NCBI RefSeq assembly: GCF_030684315.1
Contig: NC_081362.1
Coordinates: forward strand, 10,596,589 to 10,660,588
DNA: 64,000 bases
Source of the DNA: Stegostoma tigrinum
Taxonomy: Eukaryota
Direction: 5' to 3'
Shown: in pieces, positions 2,157-61,019 of the stretch
Layout of the letters: the number at the start of each line of letters is the position of its first letter
How positions within the stretch are numbered: position 1 is the stretch's first letter
Made by a program: the position numbers and the translations under genes
Notes under the pieces: generated by a model
Seen by the model: the letters and a program-made list of their open reading frames with translations, nothing else
Databases searched by the model: none
What the model was told of the DNA's origin: nothing

Positions 2157-3475
2157 AGAGATAATGGGAACTGCAGATGCTGGAGAATCCGAGATAACAG
2201 CGTGGAACTGGATGAACACAGCAGGCCCAGCAGCATCTTAGGAGCACAAAAGCTGACATTTCGGGCCTAGACCTTTCATCAGAAAAGGGAGATGGGGAGA
2301 GGGTTCCGAAATAAATAGGGAGAGAGGGGGGAGGCGGATCGAAGGTGGATAGAGGAGAAGATAGGTGGAGAGGAGATAGACAAGTTAAAGGGGCGGGGAT
2401 GGAGCCTGTAGAGGTGAATATAGGTGGAAGGTTGGGAGGGGATAGGTCAGTCTGGGGAGGACGGACAGGTCAAGGGTGCGGGATAAGGTTGGGGGTAGCG
2501 AATGGAGGTGCGGCTTGAGGTGGGAGGAGGGGATAGGTCAAAGGAGGAACAGGTTAGGGAGGTGGGGACAAGCTGGGCTGGTTTTGGGAGGCAGTGGGGG
2601 GAGGGGAGATTTTCAAGCTTGTGAAATCCACATTGATACCATTGGGCTGCAGGGTTCCCAAGCAGAATATGAGTTGCTGTTCCTGCAACCTTCGGGTGGC
2701 ATCGTTGTGGCACTGCAGGAGGCCCAGGATAGACATGTCGTCTAAGGAATGGGAGGGGGAGTTGAAATGGTTCGCGACTGGAAGGTGCAGTTGTTTATTG
2801 CGAACCGAGCATAGGTGTTCTGCAAAGCAGTCCCCAAGCCTCCGCTTGGTTTCCCCGATGTAGAGGGAGCCACAATGGGTACAGCAGATGCAATATACCA
2901 CATTGGCAGATGTGCAGGTGAACATCTGCTTGATGTGGAAAGTCATCCTGGGGCCTGGGATGGGGGTGAGGGAGGAGGTGTGGGGGCAAGTGTAGCACTT
3001 CATGCGGTTCAGGGGATGTGCCGGGTGTGTTGGGGTTGGATGGGAGTGTGGAGCGGACAAGGGGGTCACAGAGAGAGTGTCTTTCTGTAAGGCAGACAAG
3101 GGTGGGGATGGAAAAATGTCTTAGATGGCGTAAGTGTCGGAGGATGATGCATTGTACGCGGAGGTTGGTGGGGCAGGATGTGAGGACAAGGGGGATTCTC
3201 TTTGGGCGGTTATTGCGGGGACGGGGTGTGAGGGATGAGTTACAGGAAATGCGGGAGACACGGTTGAGGGCGTTCTCGACCACTACGGGGAGGAAGTTGC
3301 GGTCCTTGAAGAACGAGGACATCTGGGTTGTGCAGGAGTGGAATGACTCATCCTGGGAGCCAATGCAGCAGAGGTGAAGGAATTGGGAATGGGGATGGAA
3401 TTTTTGCAGGAAAGTGGGTGGGAGGAGGTGTATTCCAGGTGGCTGTGGGAGTCAAAGGGCTTGAAATGGATATTG
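2157..3475 (-). mobile_element. Penelope-like element, 5'-truncated (RT C-terminus, Cys-rich linker, GIY-YIG endonuclease, 3' pLTR); probably Neptune-like
   Basis: ORF 2554-3099 contains KCYTCPH..TCTSANVVYCICCTHCGSLYIGETKRRLGDCFAEH..PVANHFN; upstream frameshifted FKPFDSHSHLEYTSSHP; terminal repeat 2157-2285 with a decayed hammerhead motif. Confidence 0.9.
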
Positions 3476-3855
3476 GTTGTTGCCTGAGTACTTAAATGAG
3501 TATAAATGCCAGTGATGGTTTTCCCTTCCAAATGGACACTGTTGCTCATGATTCTGTATCTGGAACTTAAGTGGTTAAAGTATGTCCCGAGTATACCTAT
3601 ATTTATCCTTCACATCCTTGTACATGAAGGTCGATTGAGACCAAGAGTTATAAAGTGTCTAGCCACATGTTTAGAAACTTCCAATAACAAGGTGAGATGA
3701 TTAAATTATTTAAAGCTGTATGTTCCTTTGGTCTGCATGCCAAATAATACAATTGCCCTTTGAGGGGATTCCCAGTTTACAAATGTCCGACTTACAAATG
3801 CTCATACTTAAGAAAGATATCTCATACAGGTGTGTAATTTTGAAGACCCAACATA

Positions 3856-5183: not shown

Positions 5184-6698
5184 TGTGAAAGGTTCGTGCC
5201 AGTCAACTTGTAAAGGAACTGCAATATCACCTCTGCAATCTGTAGGAGTGAGCAAAAATCCCTGTCATTTAGAATACTGGACTAAAACCCCTGGATTTTT
5301 AACAGAACTTTTAAAACAAAAAGAAAAGCAGCTGGGCAATGCTCTGGAAAGCACAATCACGGGGCTGGCTGTCTGGAACCATGCTTCAGTTAGAAATCTT
5401 ATTCATGCCTTCGCCCCAAAAGAACAATGAATCAGACCTAAGGTAACAACTTCAGACATCTTGGAGATACTAGGAACTGCTGCTGCTGGAGAATCTGAGA
5501 TAACAAGGTGTGGAGCTGGATGAACACGGCAGGCCAGGCAGCATCAGAGGAGCAGGAAAGCTGACGTTTCGGAAGAAGGGTCCAGACCTGAAACGTCAGC
5601 TTTCCTGCTCCTCTGATGCTGCCTGGCCTGCTGTGTTCATCCAGCTCCACACTGTTACCTCAGACATCTTGGACTCTTCACAGGTACCAACACATTCAAC
5701 TTTAATTAATATTCATTCACAGAAATACCGGACATCCCACTTAACCAAAACACATTTATACCTACTCTAAACTATCAGGAGGCCAATTCAGCACAAAGGG
5801 AACAACAGAAACACAACGGTTAAGACAGATTTGTGAGATGATATGGAGCACACAGTCTGTATAACTGCTGGCCCTGATCTGGGAGAGAGAGAATGAGAGA
5901 GAAAGGGCCATCCGGTCAGCTACCAACTGAAGAGGGATTCCAGCCAGCTACTTTTCCCAAGAACTGTCTGTACAGCTATCCCCCTGAAACCTACCAAAAC
6001 AGGGCTGTTCTGTACCAGGGGAACCAACGGCAACGAACCACAACAAGCAGATCTGACGACCGATGACCTCCAAAAGCCACTGACATGACTGACAAGGCCT
6101 CAGACACAGCCTGAGGTGAAAACCAGCTCAAAAGAACACACCACAAAGTAAGAAAACCCAAGTTGTCTCACCAGACTGAACATCATCCAAAGTCTTCAAT
6201 GAAGCACTGGCTACAGCAAGTGGAAACAGGTAGCTGTAGTTCACAATCATGTTAATTCCCAGTGGTGAGCCTACTTCCTCAAGACCCAAAAGTATCCAAC
6301 CGAGCTAGCAGAGAGGGAAAGGTGGGTTGGTGACAGTGCAGGGAACCCCCGAGATGTCTGTGTTTGAAACTATTGTTTATCTCTAATAGTAATTAGCCTG
6401 TGTTAAGTTAATAACTGAACATGTCAGTTTCACTATTCTGAATTTGTCTTTGTAACTCTTGTATTTTTATTCATCTTTGTTTTATTTCCCTGTTTGTTAC
6501 TTTTGTCTTTTTTTATTTCTGGTGATGTACTCACCTTTACATTTAATAAACGCAGAGATTCTTTGTCCTGAAACACCTGCCCACTGCCTTCTTAGTTCAC
6601 ATTCTTTAATTGAGTCCAGTGTCAGAAACAGAGATCTGTGGGTGATTCGAACCACCTAAAAATCAGTAGATTACTGATTGCAAACCAGATTCCCTACA
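5184..6698 (+). mobile_element. Possible solo LTR, interrupted by a PLE foldback
   Basis: TG..CA ends (tgtgaaagg..ccctaca), TATA-like tataac ~5860, T-rich tract and AATAAA ~6545; TSD not convincing. Confidence 0.4.
5466..5659. mobile_element. Foldback PLE pLTR insertion, family A
   Basis: Inverted ~90 bp arms; exact 14-bp TSD tcagacatcttgga at 5452-5465 and 5660-5673. Confidence 0.9.
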
Positions 6699-7143: not shown

Positions 7144-7590
7144 AGTTAGTTAGTGAAACTTGTTCACATGAGGTGGAAAATGCCCTTTACCGATAGAGTA
7201 TATGTTTATTGCAGAGAAGAGAAAGAAAAAGTTAGTTAGTTAGTGAAACTTGTTCACATGAGGTGGAAAATGCCCTTTACCAATAGAGTATATGTTTATT
7301 GCAGAGAAGAGAAAGAAAAAGTTAGTTAGTTAGTGAAACTTGTTCACATGAGGTGGAAAATGCCCTTTACCAATAGAGTATATGTTTATTGCAGAGAAGA
7401 GAAAGAAAAAGTTAGTTAGTTAGTGAAACTTGTTCACATGAGGTGGAAAATGCCCTTTACTAATAGAGTATATGTTTATTGCAGAGAAGAGAAAGAAAAA
7501 GTTAGTTAGTTAGTGAAACTTGTTCACATGAGGTGGAAAATGCCCTTTACCAATAGAGTATATGTTTATTGCAGAGAAGAGAAAGAAAAA
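7144..7590. repeat. Tandem array, 5 x 90 bp
   Basis: Unit gttagttagttagtgaaacttgttcacatgagg..gagaaagaaaaa; apart from the start of copy 1, copies differ only at unit positions 51-52 (cg, ca, ca, ta, ca). Confidence 0.97.
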
Positions 7591-8717
7591 GCAAACCAGG
7601 CAATAATTATTTATTATGATGAACAAAGCCCATAGTCGTTGTCCTCTTGTTGCGCCATTCCCCGCTGCCTATCATTTTCTCCCGTGTTAGGGCAAAAGTT
7701 CATGGACATTCTTCATCTCTGCAAGTTTAAATTGCTACTTTTCCACACGTCCACCTAAACAAGCAACATCTGCAAGCTACTTCATAGAAGGTTTTTCGGC
7801 TAAGTCAGATTCTCATCTTCACACAAGCACTTTTGTGAAAGGTTTTTGGATAGTTATCAGGCACTTCTGCCAATTACCCTTCTGTAGTCTCTGTGATTCG
7901 TAGCCACATTACAGCTGAACACCTGACAAGCCTAAATTATGCCACAATGAGAGTCAAAAATGGAAACGAGAGCATCTGATTTTATTTGGACCAATTTGCA
8001 TCAGGAGCAAGGCTTTTAATTACAGGGAATATAATGATGTACTACAGAAAGTAGCTCAAAAGGTCTAATTCCTGACTGCACCTGTGAGAGAAAAATTTTG
8101 CCATTTCTTTATTTAACAAATGTCCTTTGGTCTCCAGCCTGATATCTGCTAGTGCATGTATGCAATTATGTTAATTTTCTGAAACACTGTTACGGCATTT
8201 CCAAATACCACAAATGCATTTAACCTAATTTTTAAAAAGCCCTGATAACAGTTGAGGTCAGCTTGCTCCCTAATTTGTTTTGGTACATGCTGTGTTTATT
8301 TTGTTATCTATTAGGTGAATAACAAAATACTGTGTTAAAACAAATTGAAAGATGTATGTGCTGTTAACAACTTTGAAAATCTGAGAGGCTGTGATTTCAG
8401 GTTCCTGCTGCTTCAAATTGGCTTCCTTGTTGAGAGTGCTCTCCGAGAGTACAAGGCAGTTTTGCATATGTCTTGCACAGATTATTACATTCAGCCACAA
8501 CAGAGAATCTCTGGACGACGTGGAAAGTCTGACTTGCCAGAGCTAGATATCAAACCCCCAATGATGGAGCTTGATAAAACTATTGTCTCCCAGGATCATT
8601 AGGCTGTAGGTACCTAATGTGTCCTTTAAGGTCTGATCAAAATGATTACAGGAAGGCACATGCACTGTGGCATAATGAACATGTACTTGTTTAATCTACT
8701 TCATTTATATATAGGCT

Positions 8718-26048: not shown

Positions 26049-26256
26049 AAGATAACAAAGTGTGAAGCTGGATGAATACAGCAGGCCAAGCAGCATTTTA
26101 GGAGCACAAAAGCTGACGTTTCGGGCCTAGAACCTTAATCAGAAAAGGGGGATGGGGAGATTTTGTGCTCCTAAGATGCTTCTTGGCCTGCTGTGTTCAT
26201 CCAGCATCACACTTTGTTATCTCGGATTCTCCAGCATCCACAGTTCCCATTATCTC
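26049..26256. mobile_element. Foldback PLE pLTR insertion, family A
   Basis: Inverted arms; 15-bp TSD tcctcccccagaagt / tccttccccagaagt (26034-26048, 26257-26271; 1 mismatch). Confidence 0.88.
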
Positions 26257-26759
26257 TCCTTCCCCAGAAGTGTTTTTAAAAATTCTCCCAACAAAAAAAG
26301 AAACCTAACGATTTGTAATGGACAGTAAGTGGAGGATTGATATTGTTTAGCAGAGCTAATGACATAGGATAAACCAACTTGTGAAATCAAGCTTTCTTCT
26401 AAACCAACTTTTGTGAGTTGTCAATAAGTCATCCCAGATTATAAATTCCACAGCAACCGGAAAATCAAGACAAAATTTGAAACTTCATTGTTAAATTACC
26501 CCAAATCTATTGAAGTGGGGTTGAAACAGTCTATAATTCAAGAAGGGGTGAGCAGTTGGTACCAAAATTTGAAGGAATTCAGCAATAATTGAGCCCTAAT
26601 ATTCCTCAATCCAATATAAATATGCAGCTTTCCAATTAAACCACTAAAGTGTCCAATTTGCCTGACTGACTACCATTCAGGACAACAGTGATTAACAACA
26701 GTGTTTGTCATTCATGGAAAAATAACTATTTACTGCACACAAACGTACTACTCAACAAG

Positions 26760-30694: not shown

Positions 30695-32180
30695 CTGGGA
30701 AGTAAGGGAGGAAATTGCAAGAACCCTTGAAGAAATATATGCATCACCTACAATTACAGGTGAGGTGCCTGATGACTGGAGGATGGCAAATGTTGTACCT
30801 TTGTTTAAGAAAGGTTGTAAGGAAAAACCTGTGACCTATAGGCTTGTGAGTCTTACTTCAGTCATGGGTAAATTGTTTGAGGTGATTATAAAAGATAGGA
30901 TTACGGACACATAGAGAAACAGAAATTGATTAGGGATAGTCAGCCTGGTTTTGCGCGAGGAAAACCATGTCTCTTAAACTCGATTGAGTTTTTTTGAGGA
31001 AGTTGCCAAAAAGGTTGATGATGACAAAGCAGTAGACATTGTTTATTTGGATTTTAGTCAGGCCTTCGACAAGATGCCGCATGGTACTCTAATTAGTAAA
31101 ATTAGGTCACATGGGATTCAGGGTGAGCTTGCCAATAAGATACATAATTGGCTTAATGGCAGGAGAGAGAGAGTAATGGTGGAGAGCTGCTGTTCGAGTG
31201 GAAGGCCTGTCACCACCGGTATTTCACAAGGACCCTTTTGGATTGATTTGGATGAGAATACAGAAGGCAGTAAATTTGTAGATGACATCAAAGTCAGTAG
31301 CACAGTAGATAGTGAAGAAGGTTTTCCGAGATTACGAAGGGATTTTGATCAAATAAGTCAATGGGATGAAAAATGGTTAGTGGAGTTCAATTTGGATAAA
31401 TGTGAGGTATTCTACTTTGGTATAACAAACAAGGGTAGGGCTTATGCAATTAATGGTAGGGCCTTGGGTAATGATGTAGAACAGAGGGAGCAAGGCGTGA
31501 AGGTGGATAATTCTTTGAAATTTGCCTCACATATAGACAGGATTGTTAAAAAGGAGTTTGGCACGCTTGCCTTCATTGCTCAATCCTTTGCACATGGGAG
31601 GTGGGAAGTCATGTTGAAGTTGTACAGGATATTGGTGAGGCCTCTTCCGGAATACAGGGTCCAGCTCTGCTCGCTCAGCTTTGGAAGCTGGAGAGGGTTC
31701 AGAAGAGATTTTCCAGGATGTTGCTGGGTATGGATGGTTTTAGTTATACAGAAAAGCTGGACAGACTGGGACCTTTTTCACTGGAGCGTAGGAGATTGAG
31801 AGGTGACCTTATGGAAGTTTACAAAATAATGAGAGGTATAGATAGAATTAATTGTAGTTGTCTTTTCTCTAGGATGGGGGATTTCAAGACTAGGGGGCAT
31901 ATTTTTAAGGCGAGAGAAGAGAGATTTAGAAAAGACATAAGGGTTAATTTTGTTTTTACACAGAGGGTGGTTCATATGTGGAATGAACTTCCTGAGGAAG
32001 TGGTGGATATAGGTAGAATTACATTTAAAAGACATTTGAATAGGTACATGAACAGGAAAAGTTTGGAGGGATATGGGCCAGGAGCAGGCAGGTAGGACTA
32101 GTTTAGTTTGGGATTACATTCAGCATGGACTGGTTGGGCTGAAGTATCTGTTTCCATGCTACATGACTCTACGACTCAAT
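30695..32180 (+). mobile_element. CR1 LINE RT and 3' UTR, 5'-truncated
   Basis: ORF 30984-31799 VDIVYLDFSQAFDKMPH..SKFVDD..FNLDKCEV; ORF 31601-32095 LERVQKRFSRM..LRGDLMEVYKIM; gactcta-type tail. Confidence 0.95.
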
Positions 32181-32352
32181 GACACGAAAACGTCTGCTCC
32201 TTACATTAAATCTACACCCCCGGGCATTGATTTCTCCACCAAGGGAAAAATATTTCTTCTCTGCCTTGCCTATGCCCCTCGTAATTTTATACATCACAAT
32301 CAGGTTCATCGCATAATCTTCTCTGCTCCCAGGAAAACAACCCCAATGTATC

Positions 32353-32567
32353 TAAGATAGTAGGAACTGCAGATGCTGGAGAATCTGAGATAACAAGGTG
32401 TAGAGCTGGATGAACACAGCAGGCCAAGCAGCATCATAGGTGCAGAAAGGCTGATGTTTCGGGCCTAGACCCTTCTTCTCATGAATGGTTTAGGCCCGAA
32501 ACATCAGCCTTCTTGCTCCTATGATGCTGCTTGGCTGCTGTGTTCATCCATCTCTACACCTCGTTAT
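32353..32567. mobile_element. Foldback PLE pLTR insertion, family A
   Basis: Inverted arms; exact 11-bp TSD cccaatgtatc at 32342-32352 and 32568-32578. Confidence 0.9.
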
Positions 32568-33180
32568 CCCAATGTATCATATCTGTCTTCATAAGAAAAA
32601 GTCTCCAGCCCAGGCAACATCCTGGTAAATCTCTTCTGCATGACTACAGAGACTTGTGGACTATGATGATAATTACGGCAGAATTCCTGGTTTCAGGCAT
32701 GCAACCTGGAAGACTGAATGTCTCTTGCGCCAGCTGGGTACTCTTTCAGCGGTGTTCACAATGCAGAAGCCAGAACACTAACACAGAATCTATTTTGGAT
32801 AAATAGGCAGCTGTGAGTTTAATTTGATCTCCATCCTATATATCATCTCAGTGCTGCTAAATTACCAATAAAATCTGACTGTTGGCAGCTTTGAGTTTTC
32901 ATTACAGACAACCAAAAATACACAGAGTGCAAATCATATGCATTTGTGGCATCATGTCAAACATCCAAACCTAAATTGTTACTGTCATTACAGTGTAGAA
33001 ATATCATTGCAGACCAGAAATCCTCAAGTGATTAGTGTCCTGATTCTTGTGGGTGGTTGTTTAGCTGTGCAATTTCATTTAAACAATAATAAATCAGATT
33101 AGACTTACTGTGTTAATTACAGTGAGTAACCAACAATAAGTCAGCAGGGTAATATTAATTCTGAATGACACACCATAAAA

Positions 33181-33985: not shown

Positions 33986-36523
33986 TCAAGACCCATGCTC
34001 AAAACTTCATAGAAGGTCTGTCCAAGGTCACCTGGCAGCACTGGCTCTCCTTCCTTTCAAAGGTGCCAGTTAGACCAACATTGGCCAATTTACAGCCTTT
34101 CAAGGAACTTGTAAGTTCATGTGTGTGCCACCCATTTTGCCGCTGCAGTTCTTTCCAACAAAAGGGAAGGGAGGCCTGGATTACTGTCACTCATGGCCCA
34201 TCACTCACCCATTCCCCCCATGTGGTTAAAATCAACCCTGTTTGGAAATGCAATGCGTGATTTAGTGTTGCCATCCTCTTATGGGTTTACCCTGCCCTTA
34301 TGAGTATTTTATTCTGACGTGAAGGTAACGTAAATCTGCAATGTACATCTACCTTAATTCCACTGCAAACGCGATCCTTCAAAACTACTGCTTGTTGAAG
34401 TCATGAACGTGCTTGAATCCTGTAATGGGATTCCCTTTCAACCAACAAGAGTTGTTTGAATTACAGAACATGATCTTTGTTTGAAGAAACAACTTTGTGT
34501 AGCAAATGCATTAGATTGTAACTTACCCTGCCAGGTCATCCAAATTCGGTTAAATATTAAAACTGTGCCAACACTGATGTCTAACCATTACCAAGCTAAT
34601 ATTGTTTACTCCACTGACCAATGGTGTGCATAAATATGAGCTGTACATCAATACAGGCATATAGAAGTGATTTATCCAAATAATTCATAGCTTGTCAGGT
34701 AGTTTTGTGTGAAGCACATCTGGCCAGGATTGATTAACAGGAAATCTAGTCTAAACAGATACTTTGGAATTTGCTTGAAGCCTTGAGGAACGCAGGTTAC
34801 TTCATACCGATCCTTCCCGTAGGATTTCAGAATGATGAAGTAAAACCGATGATGGATCGAGCCTGACTTGAAACTGCAACGTCACTCCGTCACTGTTACT
34901 CGGTCAACGTGCTGAAAGTCCCATCGTCGGTTTAACTTTATCCCTCGGACTGCAGTGATGCAGGAAGTTGACTCACTACCATCTTCTCCAGGGCAATTAG
35001 GGCTGGGTAATAAACACTGGCCCAGCCAACGATACTCACATCCCATGACCACATTTTTAAAAATAATATTGTGCCGTGGATGGAACAGATTAAGTGGAAT
35101 GTTTGCCTCAATTCTATGGGTTCTTTAAGTTTTTACATTGTATATCTCATCCTTTTTGGCAATTGTTCTTTCCATTCCCGACATTCCCAGCTAAGAGGAC
35201 GCTTTCCACTGCAATCCCTTCTTACCTTGCAGTGAAATGTCAAACTGCTGTTCACCTCGATATATCTGGGAAATTCCTGACTTTATGAGAAAGTATATAG
35301 GTTATGGGGAAATAATAACAACACCTCAATGGTCTACAAGTGTACAGCACATTGCTTTGCAATAGCATCTTGTTTGTTAACACAACAAAGTATTAAATAT
35401 TTAACTAACTCGTGATTGTGTAGTTTGAACCCATGCATCTTTGCCACACGTTATGCTGTGTGTACCATGAAACGTTCCTTTGCAGAATTTTACTTCCTGG
35501 CCAGTGGCACCACCTGCTGTTAGTGTCTGCTGCTCTGAGATCCTGCCTGTTCTTTTTAATTCAAAGATTTGAACAGCAACAACAGCCTCATTCATAAATG
35601 GCTAACATGTCTGTACTGCATATTAGGGATGCCCTCATCCCATGAATGAATAAAAACATTCTCGAGCAAACAGACCCTTAATGTTGAGACACTGAACAAA
35701 TTTAAGGAGGAGACAGACACATTTGTAATTAGTAACAGGTTAGAGGGTAAAGGGGTAACAAACTGTGGAGTTGGATGAACACAGCAGGCCAAGCAGCGTC
35801 TCAGAGGGTAAAGGGGAGTGGGCAAGGAAGTAGAGTTGAGGCCTACATGAGATCAGCCATGATCATTATGAATGGTGCAGCAGGCTTGAGGGGGCTGAAT
35901 AGCCTACTCCTGCCCCCAGCTCTTCTGTTCCTATGTAATTGGCCACATGCCACTGGATTCACTGACCTGAAGCAGCCAGGCCTCCTTAAATTGAACTTCC
36001 CTCATCCTGCTGAAAATATTAAATCCATCCCGTCAGACAGTGCCACTAAACAGGGATTTTATTTCTCATTATTCATTGCTGAGATGTGGGAATCGCTGGC
36101 TCAGCCAGCATTGATTGCACATTCCCTAATAGCCAAGAAAGCTACTACGAGTCAAAAAACATTGCTGTGGATCTGGGTCGCCTTGAAAGAGGGACTTTAA
36201 CAGTTTATTATCCATGCAAATCAAACACCATGCATTTAAGGTTCCGCTATCAGGGTTGGTGCTCAAGCCATAAAAGCACATGAAAAGAAACATGAAGGAG
36301 GGTGGTTGTCAGTGAGTTTTCTGCCACACAAAACCCACAAGTGATTGCAATGAAGAAGACTTAGGAGAGACAGTGTATTACGGCTGTCCCTGAAAATGGC
36401 AACTCCCCCTACCTGAACAAATGCGCTGGGCTGAATTTCATGGGCAGCTTTTCAGGAACAGGGTAATAAAATGTGAGGCTGGATGAACACAGCAGGCCAA
36501 GCAGCATCTCAGGAGCACAAATG

Positions 36524-36555
36524 CTGACGTTTCGGGCCTAGACCCTTCATCAGAG
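36524..36555 (-). ncRNA. Minimal type I hammerhead ribozyme motif
   Basis: Reverse complement CTGATGA-A-GGGT-ctag-GCCC-GAAA-CGTC. Confidence 0.7.
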
Positions 36556-37397
36556 AGGGGGATGGGGAGAGGGAACTGGAATAAATAGGGAGAGAGGGGG
36601 AGGCGGATCGAAGATGGAGAGTAAAGAAGATAGGTGGAGAGAGTATAGGTGGGGAGGTAGGGAGGGGATAGGTCAGTCCAGGGAAGACGGACAGGTCAAG
36701 GAGGTGGGATGAGGTTAGTAGGTAGCTGGGGGTGCGGCTTGGGGTGGGAGGAAGGGATGGGTGAGAGGAAGAACCGGTTAGGGAGGCAGAGACAGGTTGG
36801 ACTGGCTTTGGGATGCAGTGGGTGGGGGGGAAGAGCTGGGCTGGTTGTGTGGTGCAGTGGGGGGAGGGGACGAACTGGGCTGGTTTAGGGATGCAGTAGG
36901 GGAAGGGGAGATTTTGAAACTGGTGAAGTCCACATTGATACCATTAGGCTGCAGGGTTCCCAGGCGGAATATGAGTTGCTGTATTCCGCCTGGGAACCCT
37001 GCAGCCTAATGGTATCAATGTGGACTTCACCAGTTTCAAAATCTCCCCTTCCCCTACTGCATCCCTAAACCAGCCCAGTTCGTCCCCTCCCCCCACTGCA
37101 CCACACAACCAGCCCAGCTCTTCCCCCCCACCCACTGCATCCCAAAGCCAGTCCAACCTGTCTCTGCCTCCCTAACCGGTTCTTCCTCTCACCCATCCCT
37201 TCCTCCCACCCCAAGCCGCACCCCCATCTACCTATTAACCTCATCCCACCTCCTTGACCTGTCCGTCTTCCCTGGGCTGACCTATCCCCTCCCTACCTCC
37301 CCACCTATACTCTCTCCACCTATTTTCTTTACTCTCCATCTTCGGTCCGCCTCCCCCTCTCTCCCTATTTATTCCAGTTCCCTCTCCCCATCCCCCT

Positions 37398-37429
37398 CTC
37401 TGATGAAGGGTCTAGGCCCGAAACGTCAG
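37398..37429 (+). ncRNA. Minimal type I hammerhead ribozyme motif
   Basis: CTGATGA (37400-37406), stem II GGGT/GCCC, GAAA (37420-37423), CGTC. Confidence 0.7.
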
Positions 37430-38319
37430 CTTTTGTGCTCCTGAGATGCTGCTTGGCCTGCTGTGTTCATCCAGCCTCACATTTTATTATCTTGGTATTC
37501 TCCAGCATCTGCAGTTCCCATTATCTCTGATACTACTTCAGGAACAGGACTGTTTTTGTGAGTCCTGACCCCATTCTCCAAAACAGCAGCAGACTGAGGT
37601 CCCGTCCTTCTGTGATGTTGACATCAAGGTGACAGCACATGTCATGTCCACAGAGAGAATGTTACCCTTTGAGGATTTTACTAGGATTTGAGAGTCAATG
37701 GACGTCACTTGCTGACATTGAAACTGCACAAAACAAACACTTTGAGAAGCAAACACTGAGCATGAGTACAAGCTAGAAAACAGTATCACAGAACACACAC
37801 CGAACATTTTGGGTCTGACAGTCTTAAAATATTTAGATGTATCCAGCCACATTTAAGAACAATATGAATTAACTGGCACAGAATTACATACTCCTGACTT
37901 ACAGAGGCAGGTGTGCAGGAATCATCCCCCCTCCCAATCATTAGTTTGAATATGTAGGATATAAGACTATAACAGGACCAAGTAAGATTGCCTTTCCCTT
38001 TCGACTAGAATGGAACGGCTGGATTGTCTGCTATCACATTGCAAGAATAGTTACTTGGAATTAGTGCTGGAAGGTAAGAATTAGAACTAGAATTAGGCTT
38101 TATTGTCACGTGTACTCAAGTACAGGGATACAGGAGTGCAGTGAAAAGTGTACAAAGTCGCCATTCCTGGTGCTATCTTGGGTATAGAGTACCTAGGTAT
38201 AAAATCTTAGGCAAAAAGTAGAAAAACAGGTTAAAAGTTCAACATTACAGTTTTTCTCAGTATGAAGTAGTAAATAAGAAATAACATTTAAAGGTTGTCA
38301 GTATCTAACATAAACCCAT

Positions 38320-38667
38320 GGGGAGGCAATGGTCTAGTAGGATTATCATTGGAATATTGATTCAGGAAACTCAGCTATATGTTCTGGGGACCTGGGTTCA
38401 AATCTCGTTCGAGCAGATGGTAGAATTTGAATTCAACAATGAATCTGGAATAAGGAGTGTACTGGCGAACATGAAGCTGTTGCTGATTATCAGGAAAGAT
38501 TCACCTATGCCTTTTAGGGAAGGAAATCTGCTGTCATTACTTGGTCTACATGTGACTGCAGAACCACAGAATTGTGGTTGACTCTTGACTGCCCTCTGGC
38601 CAATTAGAGATGGGCAATAAAGGCTGGCCTAGCTGGAGACACCTTCATTCCATGAATGTTTTTTTTA
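38320..38667 (+). mobile_element. SINE-B
   Basis: ggggaggcaatggtctagtag..gggttcaaatc..gatgggcaataaaggctggcctagc..ccatgaatg. Confidence 0.85.
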
Positions 38668-38699
38668 AGTCTACAGGGCATTAATATTTGATCTGAATA

Positions 38700-39130
38700 T
38701 CACTATTCATATAGTGCCTTTCATAGCCTCAGGTTATCCCAAAGTGCTTCATTGACAATGAAGAGCTGTTCAGAGTATAGTCACTTATGTAATGTGAAGT
38801 TAAAACATACAGGCAGCCAATTTGAACACAGCAAGCACAAAAACAGAAGTTGCTGGAAAAGCTCAGCAGGTCTGGCTGCATCTGTGAAGAAAAAATCAGA
38901 GTTAACATTTTGGGTCTGGTGTTCTGAGGAAGGGTCACCGGACCTGAAACGTTAGCTCTGACATTTTCTTCACAGATGCTGTCAGACCTGCTGAGCTTTT
39001 CCAGCAACTTCTGATTCTGATCCTGACTTACAGTATCCACAGTTCTTTCGATTTTTATTGAACACAGCAAGCTCCCACAAGCAACAATAACATAAATGGT
39101 CAGATAATCAGTTGAGAGACAAGGAATACA
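38700..39130 (-). mobile_element. DeuSINE-like 3' portion, interrupted by a PLE foldback
   Basis: tatagtgcctttca..cccaaagtgcttca..ggcagccaatttg.acacagcaagctcccacaa..cagataatc. Confidence 0.6.
38837..39057. mobile_element. Foldback PLE pLTR insertion, family B
   Basis: Inverted arms; exact 15-bp TSD ttgaacacagcaagc at 38822-38836 and 39058-39072; CTGAGGA-A-GGGTC-accg-GACCT-GAAA-CGTTA at 38924-38954. Confidence 0.9.
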
Positions 39131-43360: not shown

Positions 43361-43570
43361 AAAGTATGGAGCTGGATGAACACTGCAGGCCAAGCAGCAT
43401 CTTAGGAGCAAAAAAGCTGACATTTCAGGCCTAGACCCATTCTGATGAAGGGTCTAGGCCCGAAACATCAGCTTTTGTGCTCCTAAGATGCTGCCTGGCC
43501 AGCTGTGTTCATCCAGCCCCATACTTTATTATCTCGAATTCTCCAGCATCTGCAGTTCCCATTATCTCTC
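43361..43570. mobile_element. Foldback PLE pLTR insertion, family A
   Basis: Inverted arms; 13-bp TSD atcctccagtacc / atcctccggtacc (43348-43360, 43571-43583); CTGATGA..GAAACATC at 43442-43469. Confidence 0.9.
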
Positions 43571-49040: not shown

Positions 49041-49402
49041 TTCTTCCAGAACTTTATTCTTGAATAACTTACTTATTAAATCATCTTTTTTTGTATTTTT
49101 ATGTTTTCACTAAAGTTTTAATTTCAAGGCTGATTTACACTTTTGCCCAGATCTGTGATTCTATTCATAGAATTCAGTTTCTTAACGGAGGTGTTTAGAG
49201 GTAATATAATACAGCAAAGTGAAGGGTTAACAGGGGACGGGTGGGAACACACATAGGGCTGGAGTCAAAGGCAAGTGTGGAGAAAATTGTAGACACTGGA
49301 ATGTGCAGGCATAATGATGGAGATGTTAAATTGTGATGCTAGGAATGGGAAGTTGAAGTGAATCAACAAGGACCGGAAATTTTTAACAACATGAGGACTT
49401 AG

Positions 49403-52148
49403 AACATAGAACATTACAGCACAGTACAGGCCCTTCGGTCCTCGATGTTGTGCCGACCTGTCATACCAATTTGAAGCCCAACTAACCTACACTATTCCAT
49501 GTACGTCCATATGCTTATCCAATGACGACTTAAATGTACCTAAAGTTGGCGAATCTACTACCGTTGCAGGCAAAGCGTTCCATACCCATACTACTCTGAG
49601 TAAAGAAACCACCTCTGACATCTGTCCTATATCTTTCACCCCTCAATTTAAAGCTATGCCCCCTCATGCTCACCATCACTATCCTAGGAAAAAGGCTCTC
49701 CCTATCCACTCTATCTAACCCTCTGATTATTTTACATGTTTCAATTAAGTCACCTCTCAACCTTCTTCTCTCTAACAAAAACTGCCTCAAGTCCCTCAGC
49801 CTTTCCTCGTAAGACCTTCCCTCCATACCAGGCAACATCCTAGTAAATCTCCTCTGCACCCCTTCCAAAGCTTCCACATCCTTCTTATAATGCGGTGACC
49901 AGAATTGTACACAATACTCCAAGTGCGGCCGCACCAGAGTTTTGTACAGCTGCAGCATAACTTCTTGGTTCCGGAACTCGATCCCTCTATTAACAAAAGC
50001 TAAAACACTGTACGCCTTCTTAACAGCCCTGTCAACCTGGGTGGCAACTTTCAAGGATCTGTGTACATGTACATGGATCTCTCTGCTCATCTACACTACT
50101 AAGAATCTTACCATTAGCCCAGTACTTTGCCTTCTGGTTACTCCTACCAAAGTGCATCACCTCACACTTGTCTGCATTAAACTCCATTTGCCACTTCTCA
50201 GACCAGCTCTGCAGCTTATCTATGTCTCTCTGCAACCAACAGCATCCTTCGTCACTATCCACAACTCCACCGACCTTAGTGTCGTCTGCAAATTTACTAA
50301 CCCATCCTTCTACGCCCTTATCTAGGTCATTTATAAAAATGACAAACAGCAGTGGACCCAACACCGACCCTTGCAACACACCACTAGTAACTGGTCTCCA
50401 GGATGAACATTTCCCATCAACTACCACCCTCTGTCTTCTTTCGGCAAGCCAATTTCCAATCTAAACTGCTATATCTCCCACAATTCCATTCCTCCGCATT
50501 TTGTACAATAGCCTACTGTGGGGAACCTTATCAAACGCCTTGCTGAAATCCATATACACCACATCAACCGGTTTACTCTCATCTACTTGTTTGGTCACCT
50601 TCTCAAAGAATTCAATAAGGTTTGTGAGCACGACCTTCCCTTCACAAAACCATGCTGACTATCCCTAATCATTATATTCTTTTCTAGATGATTATAAATC
50701 CTATCCCTTATAACCTTTTCCAACACTTTACCAACAACTGAGGTAAGGCTCACTGGTCTATAATTACCAGGGCTGTCTCTACTCCTCTTCTTGAACAGGG
50801 GAACCACATTTGCTAGCCTCCAGTCATCTAGCACAATTCCTGTAGACAATGACGAGTTAAAGATCAATGCCAAAGGCTCTGCAATCTCCTCCCTGGCTTC
50901 CCAGAGGATCCTAGGATAAATCCCATCCGGCCTAGGGGACTTACCTATCTTCACCCTCTGCAGGATTTCTAATACCTCTTCCTTGTGAACCTCAATCCCA
51001 CCTAGTCTAGTAGCCTGTATCTCAGTATTCTCCTCAACAACATTGTCGTTTTCTAGAGCGAATACTGTTGAAAAATATTCATTTAGTGCTTCCCCTAGCT
51101 CCTCTGACTCCACACACAACTTCCCACGACTATCCTTGATTGGCCCTAATCTTACTTTCATCATTCTTTTATTCCTTAAATACCTATAGAAAGCCTTAGG
51201 GTTTACCCTGATCCTATCCGCCAACAACTTCCCATGTCTCCTCTTGGCTCTTCTGAGCTCTCTCTTTAAGTCTTTCCTGGCTACCTCTCAAGTGCCTTAA
51301 CTGAGCCTTCATATCTCATCCTAACATAAGCCTTCTTCCTCCTCTTGACCAGAGATTCCAACTCCTTCGTAAACCACGGCTCCAGCGCTCTACAGCTTCC
51401 TCCCTGCCTGACAGGTACATACTTATTTAGGACACACAGGAGCTTTTCCTTGAATAAGCTCCACATTTCTAATGTGCCCATCCCCTGCAGTTTCTTTCCC
51501 CATCCTATGCTCCCTAAATCTTGCCTAATCTCATCGTAATTGCCTTTTCCCCAGCTATAACTCTTGCCCAGTGGTATACACATATCCCTTTCCATCACTA
51601 AAGTAAACATAACAGAATTGTGATCGCTATCACCAAAGTGCTCACCTACTTCCAAATCTATCACCTGGAGGGACTCATTATCCAGTACCAAATCTAATGT
51701 GGCTTTGCCCCTTGTTGGCCTATCTCCATACTGTGTCAGGAAGCCCTCCTGCACCCACTGGACAAAAACTGACCCATCTATAGTATTTGATCTATAGTGT
51801 TCCCAGTCAATATTTGGAAAGTTGGAGTCACCCATGACAACTACCCTGTCTCTCTCACTCCTATCGAGAATCATCTTTGCTATCCTTTCCTCTACACCTC
51901 TGGAACTATTCGGAGGCCTATAGAAAACTCCCAACAGTGTGACCTCTCCTTTCCTGTTTCTAACCTCAGCCCATACTACCTCAGTTGACGAGTCCCCAAA
52001 CATCCTTTCTGCAACTGTAATACTGTCCTTGACCAACAATGCCACACCTCCCCCTCTTTTACCATCTTCTCTGTTCTTACTGAAACATCTAAATCTCGGA
52101 ACCTGCAACAACCATTTCTGTCCCTGCTCTATCCATGTCTCCGAAATA
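49403..52148 (-). mobile_element. Young CR1 LINE, most of ORF2 (APE + RT) and 3' UTR; 5'-truncated, frameshifted into four ORFs
   Basis: ORFs 51281-52168 (GGGVALLVK, GVFYRPP, GDSDH), 50595-51227 (NYRPVSLTS), 50032-50427 (QGSVLGP, KFADDTK), 49530-50090; (gttctat)n tail; candidate TSD gacttag. Confidence 0.97.
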
Positions 52149-52162
52149 GACTTAGGCAGTTG

Positions 52163-52482
52163 AAACATAGAAACATAGAAAGTAGGTACAGGAGTAGGCC
52201 ATTTGACCGTTCAAGCCTGTTCCACCATTCAATATGATCATGGCTGATCCAGATGTATATCTATCCCACTCTCACTTTCGCTCCATATCCCTTGATCCCT
52301 TTAGCCACAAGGGCCACATCCAGCTTCCTCTTGAACATATCTAACATAGTGGCCCCAACTGCTTTCTGTGGTAAAGAATTCCACAGGTTCACAACTCTCT
52401 GAGGGAAGAAATTGTTCCTAATCTCAGTCCTGAATGGCTTACCCCTTATTCTTAGACTGTCACCCCTAGTTCTGGACTTGCC
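52163..52482 (-). mobile_element. CR1 3' end, different subfamily
   Basis: (gaaacata)n tail in reverse, followed by a CR1 UTR and ORF end. Confidence 0.8.
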
Positions 52483-59455: not shown

Positions 59456-60715
59456 TTCATACCAAGGCTAAACAACAAGAGAAAGAAGTGAAACCCTTAC
59501 TGGGGGTTACGCTAGCAACCTTTCACACTATGGACCAGAGAAGAAACCAATAAATTCTTTAACGTCACAGCAAAATCCTTACGTACATTATCCCAACCCA
59601 AAATCTTTGCACTCTTCTCACTTAACCTCTCCAATCACAACTTTCATACAGTGCTTACATTCAGGTATTGTCCCCTTACATATCTCAGCTTGCATTGATA
59701 CAAGTATTTATTTTAAATTTGTGAACATTACACTAAGTTAGGAGCCAGACAAATTAGTTCAGATTTCTTCTCTCAGTTGGGGATCCTCTTCAAGGTTGTG
59801 GGAGATCACTTCTGTTGTCCTCTGGCAGAACACTTAGAGAAAGGCAAGGGTGAAGTGCTACCACTGCCGGCCTGGCTCTGATATTCTTTACAGTGGAAGT
59901 TGAGGATATAGCTTGTTTTGCATCGTAAACTATGAGTTCAACTGCTACGGGAGGCAGTATCAGGGGCAAGGAGAGAAACCACCTGCCCCAGTACTGCTCT
60001 TGGCTTAGAAACCTGGATCCATTCCCACCTCCCAGCCCGCTCCAACACATCAGCCTTGACCCCCAACCCAAGCACAGCAAGCCCCCTAGAGCAATATCCT
60101 GGTAATTGGACCTCAGATGATATCTATCCACTGTGAATGTACATGTTAGAATAGCCTTTACTGTCACATGCGCTCGAATGAGTGCACTAAAAAGTTTGCG
60201 ATGTCACCTGTCAGCGCCATCTTACGTACCGGGTACCCAGGTGCAGATATTTTAAGTGTTGTTACAGGTTTGAAATAATGAAACAATAAAGTCTAGCATG
60301 GTAATACAGAGCTTTTAAAAAAAAGTGCAGAAAGAGAATACAAATTTATCTTTAAAGTACTCAAGTTATAGTCCTTTCTCACTGAGTCCATGCCCACCAA
60401 GCTTCAGAGCACAAGGCCTCACTGCCTCAATGCTTTGGCATCACCCCCGGCTACACCTCCCCCCCATCTCCGTCTGTACTGCTCCTGCTCCCGCCCCCAA
60501 CCCCGGCCACAGCACGTCTCCAGCACTGGGGTAGTCTCGGACTCCGTTCTCCATTCCCTCCAGGTAGGGTACATTAAGAAGTTAAAAGTTCGGGGGGGAG
60601 TTGGGTCGTGAGGAAACAAAATTGCAGCAAGAGGGAAAAGGAGGGAAAAAGGAGCTGGCAAGCAGAGGAGCTCTAGCTGGAGTGCCTTACTCTGCCACCA
60701 TCGACAAAAATAGTA

Positions 60716-60938
60716 CAGATGCAGGAAATCAGAAACAAAAAAAGAACTGGCATGCAAGTCTCAGCTGATCTGGCAACATTTGTAGAGGGGAATCAGAGTG
60801 AATGTTTCAAGTCCAGTGACCCTTCTTCAGAGCTCACTTCTGAAGAAGGGTCACCAGATCTGAAACGTTAACTCTGATTTCTCTCCGCAGATGCTGCCAG
60901 GCCTGCTGAGATTTTCCAGCAATTTCTGTTTTTGTCTG
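60716..60938. mobile_element. Head-to-head pair of PLE pLTRs, family B
   Basis: ..gacccttcttcagagctcacttctgaagaagggtc..; right arm CTGAAGA..GAAACGTTA at 60840-60870; no clear TSD. Confidence 0.8.
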
Positions 60939-61019
60939 TGTTTGTAATTGAGCTTGCTGACACTGCCACTCTCCTCCACACTCACCTTCCCTCCCCGCCA
61001 CCTTCCCATTCTGGACTCT

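Follow-up and report, generated by a model that had tools for sequence, protein, structure and literature searches.

How can a retroelement leave behind two nearly identical, oppositely oriented copies of its own 3' end in one insertion? The question is raised by a palindrome of about 1 kb at positions 36451-37548 of a 64,000-nucleotide (nt) stretch of the zebra shark genome (Stegostoma tigrinum, RefSeq assembly GCF_030684315.1, contig NC_081362.1, positions 10,596,589 to 10,660,588 of the forward strand), which was analysed as a whole and is referred to as the window. A first-pass annotation, made from the letters of the window, had described the palindrome, noted a hammerhead ribozyme core on each strand and proposed a recent single insertion whose transcripts could silence the family. 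Here, we suggest that the palindrome is almost certainly a single insertion of a 5'-truncated, endonuclease-positive (EN+) Penelope-like element (PLE), in which an inverted, tail-less copy lies head-to-head with a tailed copy, and as such an ordinary PLE insertion. The full explanation, which we regard as very probable, is one insertion, likely made by priming at both nicks on one RNA with fold-back of the complementary DNA (cDNA), and probably inert.

Structure and identity of the insertion

Two arms of 508 nt each (36464-36971 and 36982-37489) are reverse complements of one another with six mismatches (position pairs 36726/37227, 36718/37235, 36677/37276, 36629/37324, 36608/37345 and 36522/37431), separated by a 10-nt spacer (36972-36981, TGAGTTGCTG). 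A 47-nt tail (37490-37536, plus strand) is found beside the right arm only, and an exact direct repeat of 12 base pairs (bp), the target-site duplication (TSD; 36451-36462 and 37537-37548, plus strand), encloses the whole unit, with a single extra G at 36463 between its left copy and the left arm. When two random 24-nt windows were drawn, a common 12-mer occurred in 3 of 20,000 draws. The window contains zero Ns. Arm length, the approximate number of mismatches, spacer, one-sided tail and TSD had all been described in the first-pass annotation and were confirmed by sequence comparison.

Short-read contigs of four runs were aligned to the right arm and the right flank, with a bridging rule of 31 letters. 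The spacer consists of the next 10 nt of the element on the left arm: the reading frame continues (QQLIFRLG), and the same letters are present in an older relic of a related PLE in the window. Since the frame of the left arm continues and 271 contigs of run X1 enter native element sequence at this point, we take the spacer to be the left arm's own extra 10 nt (minus strand). Judged from these letters it is not foreign, which gives the tail-less left arm a length of about 518 nt (36464-36981, minus strand) and makes the spacer the predicted fold-back loop, which overlaps the right arm by 1 nt at 36982.

Both arms run from the last codons of a GIY-YIG endonuclease through a pyrimidine-rich 3' untranslated region (UTR) to a hammerhead motif; on the right arm (plus strand), the open reading frame (ORF) stops at 37173-37175 and three 39-nt internal repeats lie near 37044-37172. 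Compared by tblastn with the C-terminus of protein P0001, the left arm was 94% identical over 34 amino acids (aa; residues 429-462) and the right arm 90% over 31 aa (residues 432-462), which bears out the earlier claim that both arms reach into the C-terminus of the endonuclease. The right arm is also 94% identical over 119 aa to a C-terminal read-through of the zebra shark protein P0002. The truncated copy is without reverse transcriptase (RT) and 5' end, and the endonuclease is represented by its last residues only.

For identification of the family we relied on the relic mentioned above (2157-3480, minus strand), an older and longer copy with homology to the RT C-terminus, the linker, the GIY-YIG domain and a tailed 3' end. 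Its part 2578-3480 matches residues 155-462 of P0001 as well as the RT-bearing P0009. Of 356 candidate proteins, 13 were hit, the best of them from whale shark, zebra shark, a ray and bamboo shark, so that a carpet shark is the most likely host. The Pfam GIY-YIG match, which served as a check of membership in the EN+ PLEs, was weak (E = 0.008, below cutoff). The motif VVYCxxCxxCGxLYIG, with two cysteines inside GIY-YIG, is present in all four homologues examined and in the relic (the histidines of CCHH were read by eye), while a CX4CxxC linker is found in three of the four (P0001, P0003 and P0009), is degenerate in P0002 and has left the remnant NRMKCYTC in the relic. According to the excerpt consulted of PMC8557442 (all cited works are represented here by excerpts), a CX2-5CxxC linker between RT and endonuclease marks Neptune and Nematis and is missing from Penelope and Poseidon. 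By the linker of its closest proteins, the element would be of the Neptune type, with Nematis sharing the linker motif. Reports of Neptune-type Penelope retrotransposons from sharks were not found in the open-access literature. Because TSD, tail and PLE homology are combined at one locus, the palindrome is best read as a single retroelement insertion.

Several 'uncharacterized proteins' of sharks and rays at NCBI (P0001, P0002, P0003, P0005 and P0010) are truncated PLE ORFs; P0002 reads past a frameshift and continues into the 3' UTR and the hammerhead. Scans of metagenomes for further copies yielded zero matches in one case, and the sole match of a second scan (L001), which shares just a 21-22-nt motif and has 59% GC, was rejected as a family copy and taken as chance.

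Related insertions

The family of the palindrome occupies 11 loci of the window, namely five two-armed loci, three with a tailed arm only and three with a tail-less arm only. Apart from the palindrome, its two-armed loci are located at 5464-5656, 26049-26257, 32348-32568 and 43361-43570, and two further ones belong to a second family (38837-39057 and about 60705-60945). All six siblings are about 200 bp long, with centres at or near the hammerhead. The tail is attached to exactly one arm in 7/7 two-armed loci of both families, and a clear TSD of 11-17 bp was found in 6/7 (five of the six siblings). The arms of the palindrome diverge by 1.2% and those of the siblings by 3-24%, making the palindrome the least diverged of the seven. 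Read by eye, the loop belongs to the tail-less arm in some siblings and to the tailed arm in others.

The number of contigs aligning to the right arm and flank reached 202,874 in run X1 and 252,506 in run X2, and the summed family depth exceeded that of the unique flank by some five to six orders of magnitude, a value that is not a copy number. In these contigs, the family ends in read joints at 37491-37495 and 37525-37533, which are the two ends of the palindrome. The build of the palindrome is a family-wide pattern and the locus is not singular.

Two observations concern the ends of the family. Both 3' ends, tail-less and tailed, lie in or just after a TTATCT-like hexamer (37484-37492, 37521-37528 and the sibling ends), which suggests one recognition motif at both RT start sites. 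Furthermore, many contigs join the tail-less end (37491-37495) straight to the tail end (37525-37533) on opposite strands, tail-to-tail; such joints suggest that palindromic units form arrays or that the element has inserted into its own end.

Origin of the two arms

The origin of inverted structures in PLEs is called undefined in the excerpt of PMC8557442, and a fold-back model for Penelope was not found in the open-access literature; it may be in print elsewhere. A PLE protein was shown in vitro to cleave both strands, to extend them and to start at two adjacent RNA sites, the spacing of which equals the tail (PMC11167929). As the outer junctions of the palindrome read as first-strand cDNA on both strands, both nicks were probably primed on element RNA, and the loop on either arm in the siblings indicates that both arms can be primary cDNAs.

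We hypothesise that the GIY-YIG endonuclease nicked both strands 12 nt apart, as the TSD suggests. The top-strand nick would have primed at the internal start site, without a tail, and the bottom-strand nick at the tail end, as the two different ends of the unit indicate. The left cDNA may then have halted about 518 nt in, folded back over the 10-nt loop and been copied into sense DNA, which would anneal to the tail-primed cDNA while repair fills the gaps. The result would be a copy without RT or 5' end, whose hammerheads are predicted to be unable to fold in a read-through transcript. Fold-back of the longer cDNA would leave arms that are nearly identical and stop almost together, and after 500 nt the 5' ends of the arms are indeed no more than 10 nt apart. 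For twin priming with fold-back specifically, we regard the chances as about even.

An alternative, which appears unlikely, is self-priming on an antisense RNA template, by which the palindrome would have been made before integration (model of Arkhipova et al. 2013). It was put forward for the same type of junction (PMC3846280) and accounts for identical arms and a short loop, but on its own it leaves the one-tail rule (7/7) and the loop on either arm unexplained, and later in vitro work described target-primed starts on sense RNA at two sites (PMC11167929).

But, did both arms come from the same RNA molecule? One template for both is probable, because the arms have a rare letter in common, agree at polymorphic sites, differ by private letters and end together. 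The G at 37147, common to both arms, has a family-depth share of at most 1% (X1), 3% (X2) and 0% (X5), and the arms are concordant at the eight further polymorphic sites checked. The right-arm letters at 37235 (1%), 37276 (7%) and 37324 (1%) are rare in the family, which argues that the arm differences are private and not subfamily alleles.

Two independent element RNAs, primed at the two nicks and with end-joined cDNAs, or arms that represent separate insertions, are quite unlikely. They would fit the fact that the arms carry six differences and yet 0/18 CpG sites are changed (with CpG rates raised 5-15-fold, 1.1-3.3 changes would be expected; P(0) = 0.33-0.04, so that the lack is not decisive), the position of five of the six differences inside 119 nt (P about 0.05, post hoc) and the single-armed insertions of both types in the window. 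They do not explain why the arms share a letter that is rare in the family and otherwise differ by private letters, why their 5' ends coincide so far from the truncation cluster at the hammerhead, or why one TSD surrounds the whole unit. The same idea had also been drawn from five of the six differences seeming right-sided when compared with the old relic; this argument was dropped, since family reads and P0002 gave two left-derived and three right-derived differences, with one assigned by the relic only.

Four transitions, each C>T or A>G, are all on the right arm, three of them by family reads and one by the relic alone; for such an all-right-arm set of wobble transitions, the post hoc chance is about 1 in 64 (four) or 1 in 16 (three). 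That they are wobble-type RT errors, fixed at insertion on the arm copied second, is only a lead. More tentatively still, and with considerable doubt on our side, long PLE palindromes of sharks might record the second half of Penelope integration: one RNA primed from both nicks, one priming per start site and a second strand made by the element's RT through fold-back of the longer cDNA. A long, young palindrome with arms ending within 10 nt constrains the mechanism better than the siblings, which are less informative because their ends, at about 200 bp, cluster at the hammerhead anyway.

Hammerhead motifs and predicted transcript

The hammerhead core CTGATGA..GAAACGTC is located at 37400-37427 (plus strand) on the right arm and at 36553-36526 (minus strand) on the left arm, the positions at which the first-pass annotation had placed it. 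The core was called intact there, which holds only for the conserved core letters: stem I has 2 contiguous pairs, short of 4-5 bp, and a search of Rfam gave no hammerhead match at the gathering score or at E up to 10. On the right arm, an extra A precedes stem II and a palindromic ACGT replaces stem III. Hallmarks of PLE hammerheads are thus present, i.e. the conserved core, the bulged nucleotide before stem II, G10.1-C11.1 and the palindromic remnant of stem III. Over 10 copies of the motif in the window, stem I comprises two contiguous pairs in 8/10, three in one and none in one. The isolated motif is predicted to prefer the core-pairing fold (-11.4 versus -3.6 kcal/mol). Minimal PLE hammerheads are described as paired on opposite strands, 100-700 bp apart (PMC4209133), and as weakly cleaving, either as dimers or with the help of protein (PMC11167929, PMC4209133).

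A step in family depth lies at 37399-37400: from the first letter of the hammerhead core onwards, the depth is about threefold higher, and some 530 contigs show loose ends ahead of 37399. The step marks either a preferred site of 5' truncation or the border of a subfamily; the truncation point precedes the predicted cleavage site (37427/37428).

Read-through transcription is predicted to give an RNA that forms a single hairpin of about 508 bp (-1170.5 kcal/mol), in agreement with the hairpin of about 500 bp that had been proposed from the letters. In such a transcript, the ribozyme would be inactive, because whichever strand is transcribed, the hammerhead is preceded by its antisense, with which it would pair as it emerges, much as in the earlier suggestion of a ribozyme paired with its own antisense. 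Among sub-threshold Rfam matches, 15/17 and one more were microRNA (miRNA) models at the palindrome centre, all below the gathering score and explained by the perfect hairpin. Annotators should be warned that such units mimic miniature inverted-repeat transposable elements and miRNA hairpins. Cruciform formation at the palindrome is plausible.

It is very doubtful that the locus is transcribed and works as a source of small interfering RNA (siRNA) that silences the family, or as an ADAR substrate. The predicted hairpin would suit such a role, all four transitions would form G-U pairs in a plus-strand transcript (chance 1 in 8 for either strand), and the siRNAs of Penelope in transgenic D. melanogaster matched those parts of rearranged copies that were inverted (PMC3681739). 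The excerpt of the same work states, however, that these siRNAs failed to silence the element efficiently. Sense promoters in the pseudo-long terminal repeat (pLTR) would face outwards in a head-to-head unit. Signs of transcription were not found: host-gene domains were absent from the 121 of 224 ORFs (of at least 65 aa) that were scanned, a scan that would miss short exons and gave LINE (long interspersed nuclear element) RT and endonuclease domains and one sub-cutoff domain of unknown function. The family is rich in like palindromes, so that no single locus is special. Consequently, a special silencing role of the locus, as suggested in the first-pass annotation, found no support; an siRNA role for palindromes of the family in general appears plausible in view of the Drosophila case, with nothing marking out the one at 36451-37548.

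Support from reads, age and opposing points

A contig of single-copy depth, present in X1 and X2, extends from the tail (37511) across the TSD as far as 38117 and differs at a single position (C>T, 37545). Short reads show the right junction; the variant lies inside the right TSD, and the insertion appears to be present on more than one haplotype. Reads across the TSD flanks had been named in the first-pass annotation as what separates an insertion from an assembly fold-back; they exist for the right junction, with 26 element-side letters, and contigs across the centre are absent among those listed. Of the words sampled from 35200-38800, 85-94% are present in four runs of one study. In contigs of another species (X16), the unique right flank was uncovered at 88% likeness, a gap that proves nothing. 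Near-perfect long palindromes are a known class of artefact. An assembly or library fold-back, which would fit this class and the lack of a listed centre-spanning contig, is scarcely credible here given the six mismatches, one-sided tail, exact TSD, differing unique flanks, the same build in older siblings, the tail-to-flank contig in two runs and the sampled words.

With the mutation rate of 7e-10 per base per generation from an epaulette-shark pedigree (PMC10587355), a rate from one species that may not apply here, and on the assumption that the arms started out identical, the six differences correspond to about 8 million generations (95% range 3-18); the figure drops to about 3 million if the four transitions arose during insertion itself. 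The 'recent single insertion' of the first-pass annotation is thus retained as a single insertion, and the least diverged of the seven two-armed loci, but it is recent in a relative sense, at about 8 million generations and with a TSD variant in two samples.

Several points weigh against our account of one insertion made by fold-back from one template. The overlap at the centre is 1 nt only (or three pairs, two of them wobbles), a poor basis for fold-back priming, and gene conversion after the insertion could also have given both arms the rare letter. The family allele shares are sums of contig depth and not copy counts, and cover the sites listed, perhaps without 37227 and 37345. There are seven two-armed examples only, and the in vitro data come from a Poseidon element, i.e. 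another family. The element-side letters of the bridging contig are below the 31-letter rule, the centre is without a spanning contig among those listed from the right-arm alignment, X1 and X2 belong to one study, with X1 possibly the source of the assembly, and no empty site was seen.

Other features of the window

To the left of the palindrome, at a distance of 650 bp, 14-bp direct repeats enclose a tail-less PLE stub of 47 nt (35742-35816, minus strand). A tandem array at 7144-7591 comprises about five 90-bp units that are 99% identical by self-BLAST. Broken LINEs at 30978-32113 (plus strand) and 49265-52210 (minus strand) contain domains of RT and of an APE-type endonuclease; we take them to be CR1-like.

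Comparison with known systems

The locus itself carries little weight, as it is another truncated copy of an abundant retroelement. If the proposed origin is true, however, the abundance of the family would make twin priming and fold-back provable from assemblies alone. In L1 twin priming, both nicks prime cDNA on one RNA, which leads to a 5' inversion with TSD, and the inverted part represents a different, upstream stretch of the RNA. The arms of the palindrome, in contrast, cover the same stretch, so that a second copying step would be needed.

The closest likeness is to the complex insertions of EN+ PLEs. Typically, these consist of an inverted 5'-truncated copy with a 30-40-bp tail at one end (PMC8557442), and an inverted pLTR, a tail and a TSD of 9-10 bp have been described together with the self-priming proposed for head-to-head junctions (PMC3846280). 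As far as the excerpts go, the palindrome shares with them the head-to-head tail-less copy, the tail at one end, the short TSD, the short junction overlap or loop and the pLTR hammerhead; it differs in that only the last 0.5 kb or so remains of either copy, with truncation at nearly the same point and an almost pure palindrome as the result, and in its tail of 47 nt instead of 30-40. With the Neptune clade, the family has in common the C-terminal GIY-YIG with two cysteines in the motif and the CX4CxxC linker (P0001, P0003 and P0009, with a remnant in the relic), whereas the palindrome holds only the last residues of the endonuclease, and the assignment, made via a linker that Nematis has too, would apply with that limit.

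Compared with the minimal type-I hammerheads of metazoan PLEs (PMC4209133), the core letters, the extra nucleotide between 9 and 10.1, G10.1-C11.1, the palindromic 15.2-16.2 and the pairs on opposite strands correspond, while stem I (2 bp) and stem II (3-4 bp) are shorter than in S. mansoni (4-5 and 7-8 bp, respectively); a 2-bp stem I is known from the D. virilis variant (PMC4209133). The Penelope siRNA sources of Drosophila (PMC3681739) are likewise long inverted repeats of an element able to form double-stranded RNA, but transcription and siRNAs were measured there, and the shark palindrome is known from DNA alone. Each of its features has been published already, from the inverted copy, the tail on one side and the TSD to the hammerheads on opposite strands, and so have siRNAs that derive from Penelope copies in inverted arrangement. 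In this light, the palindrome is ordinary, though longer and cleaner than is usual for the known PLE insertion with an inverted copy and a tail.

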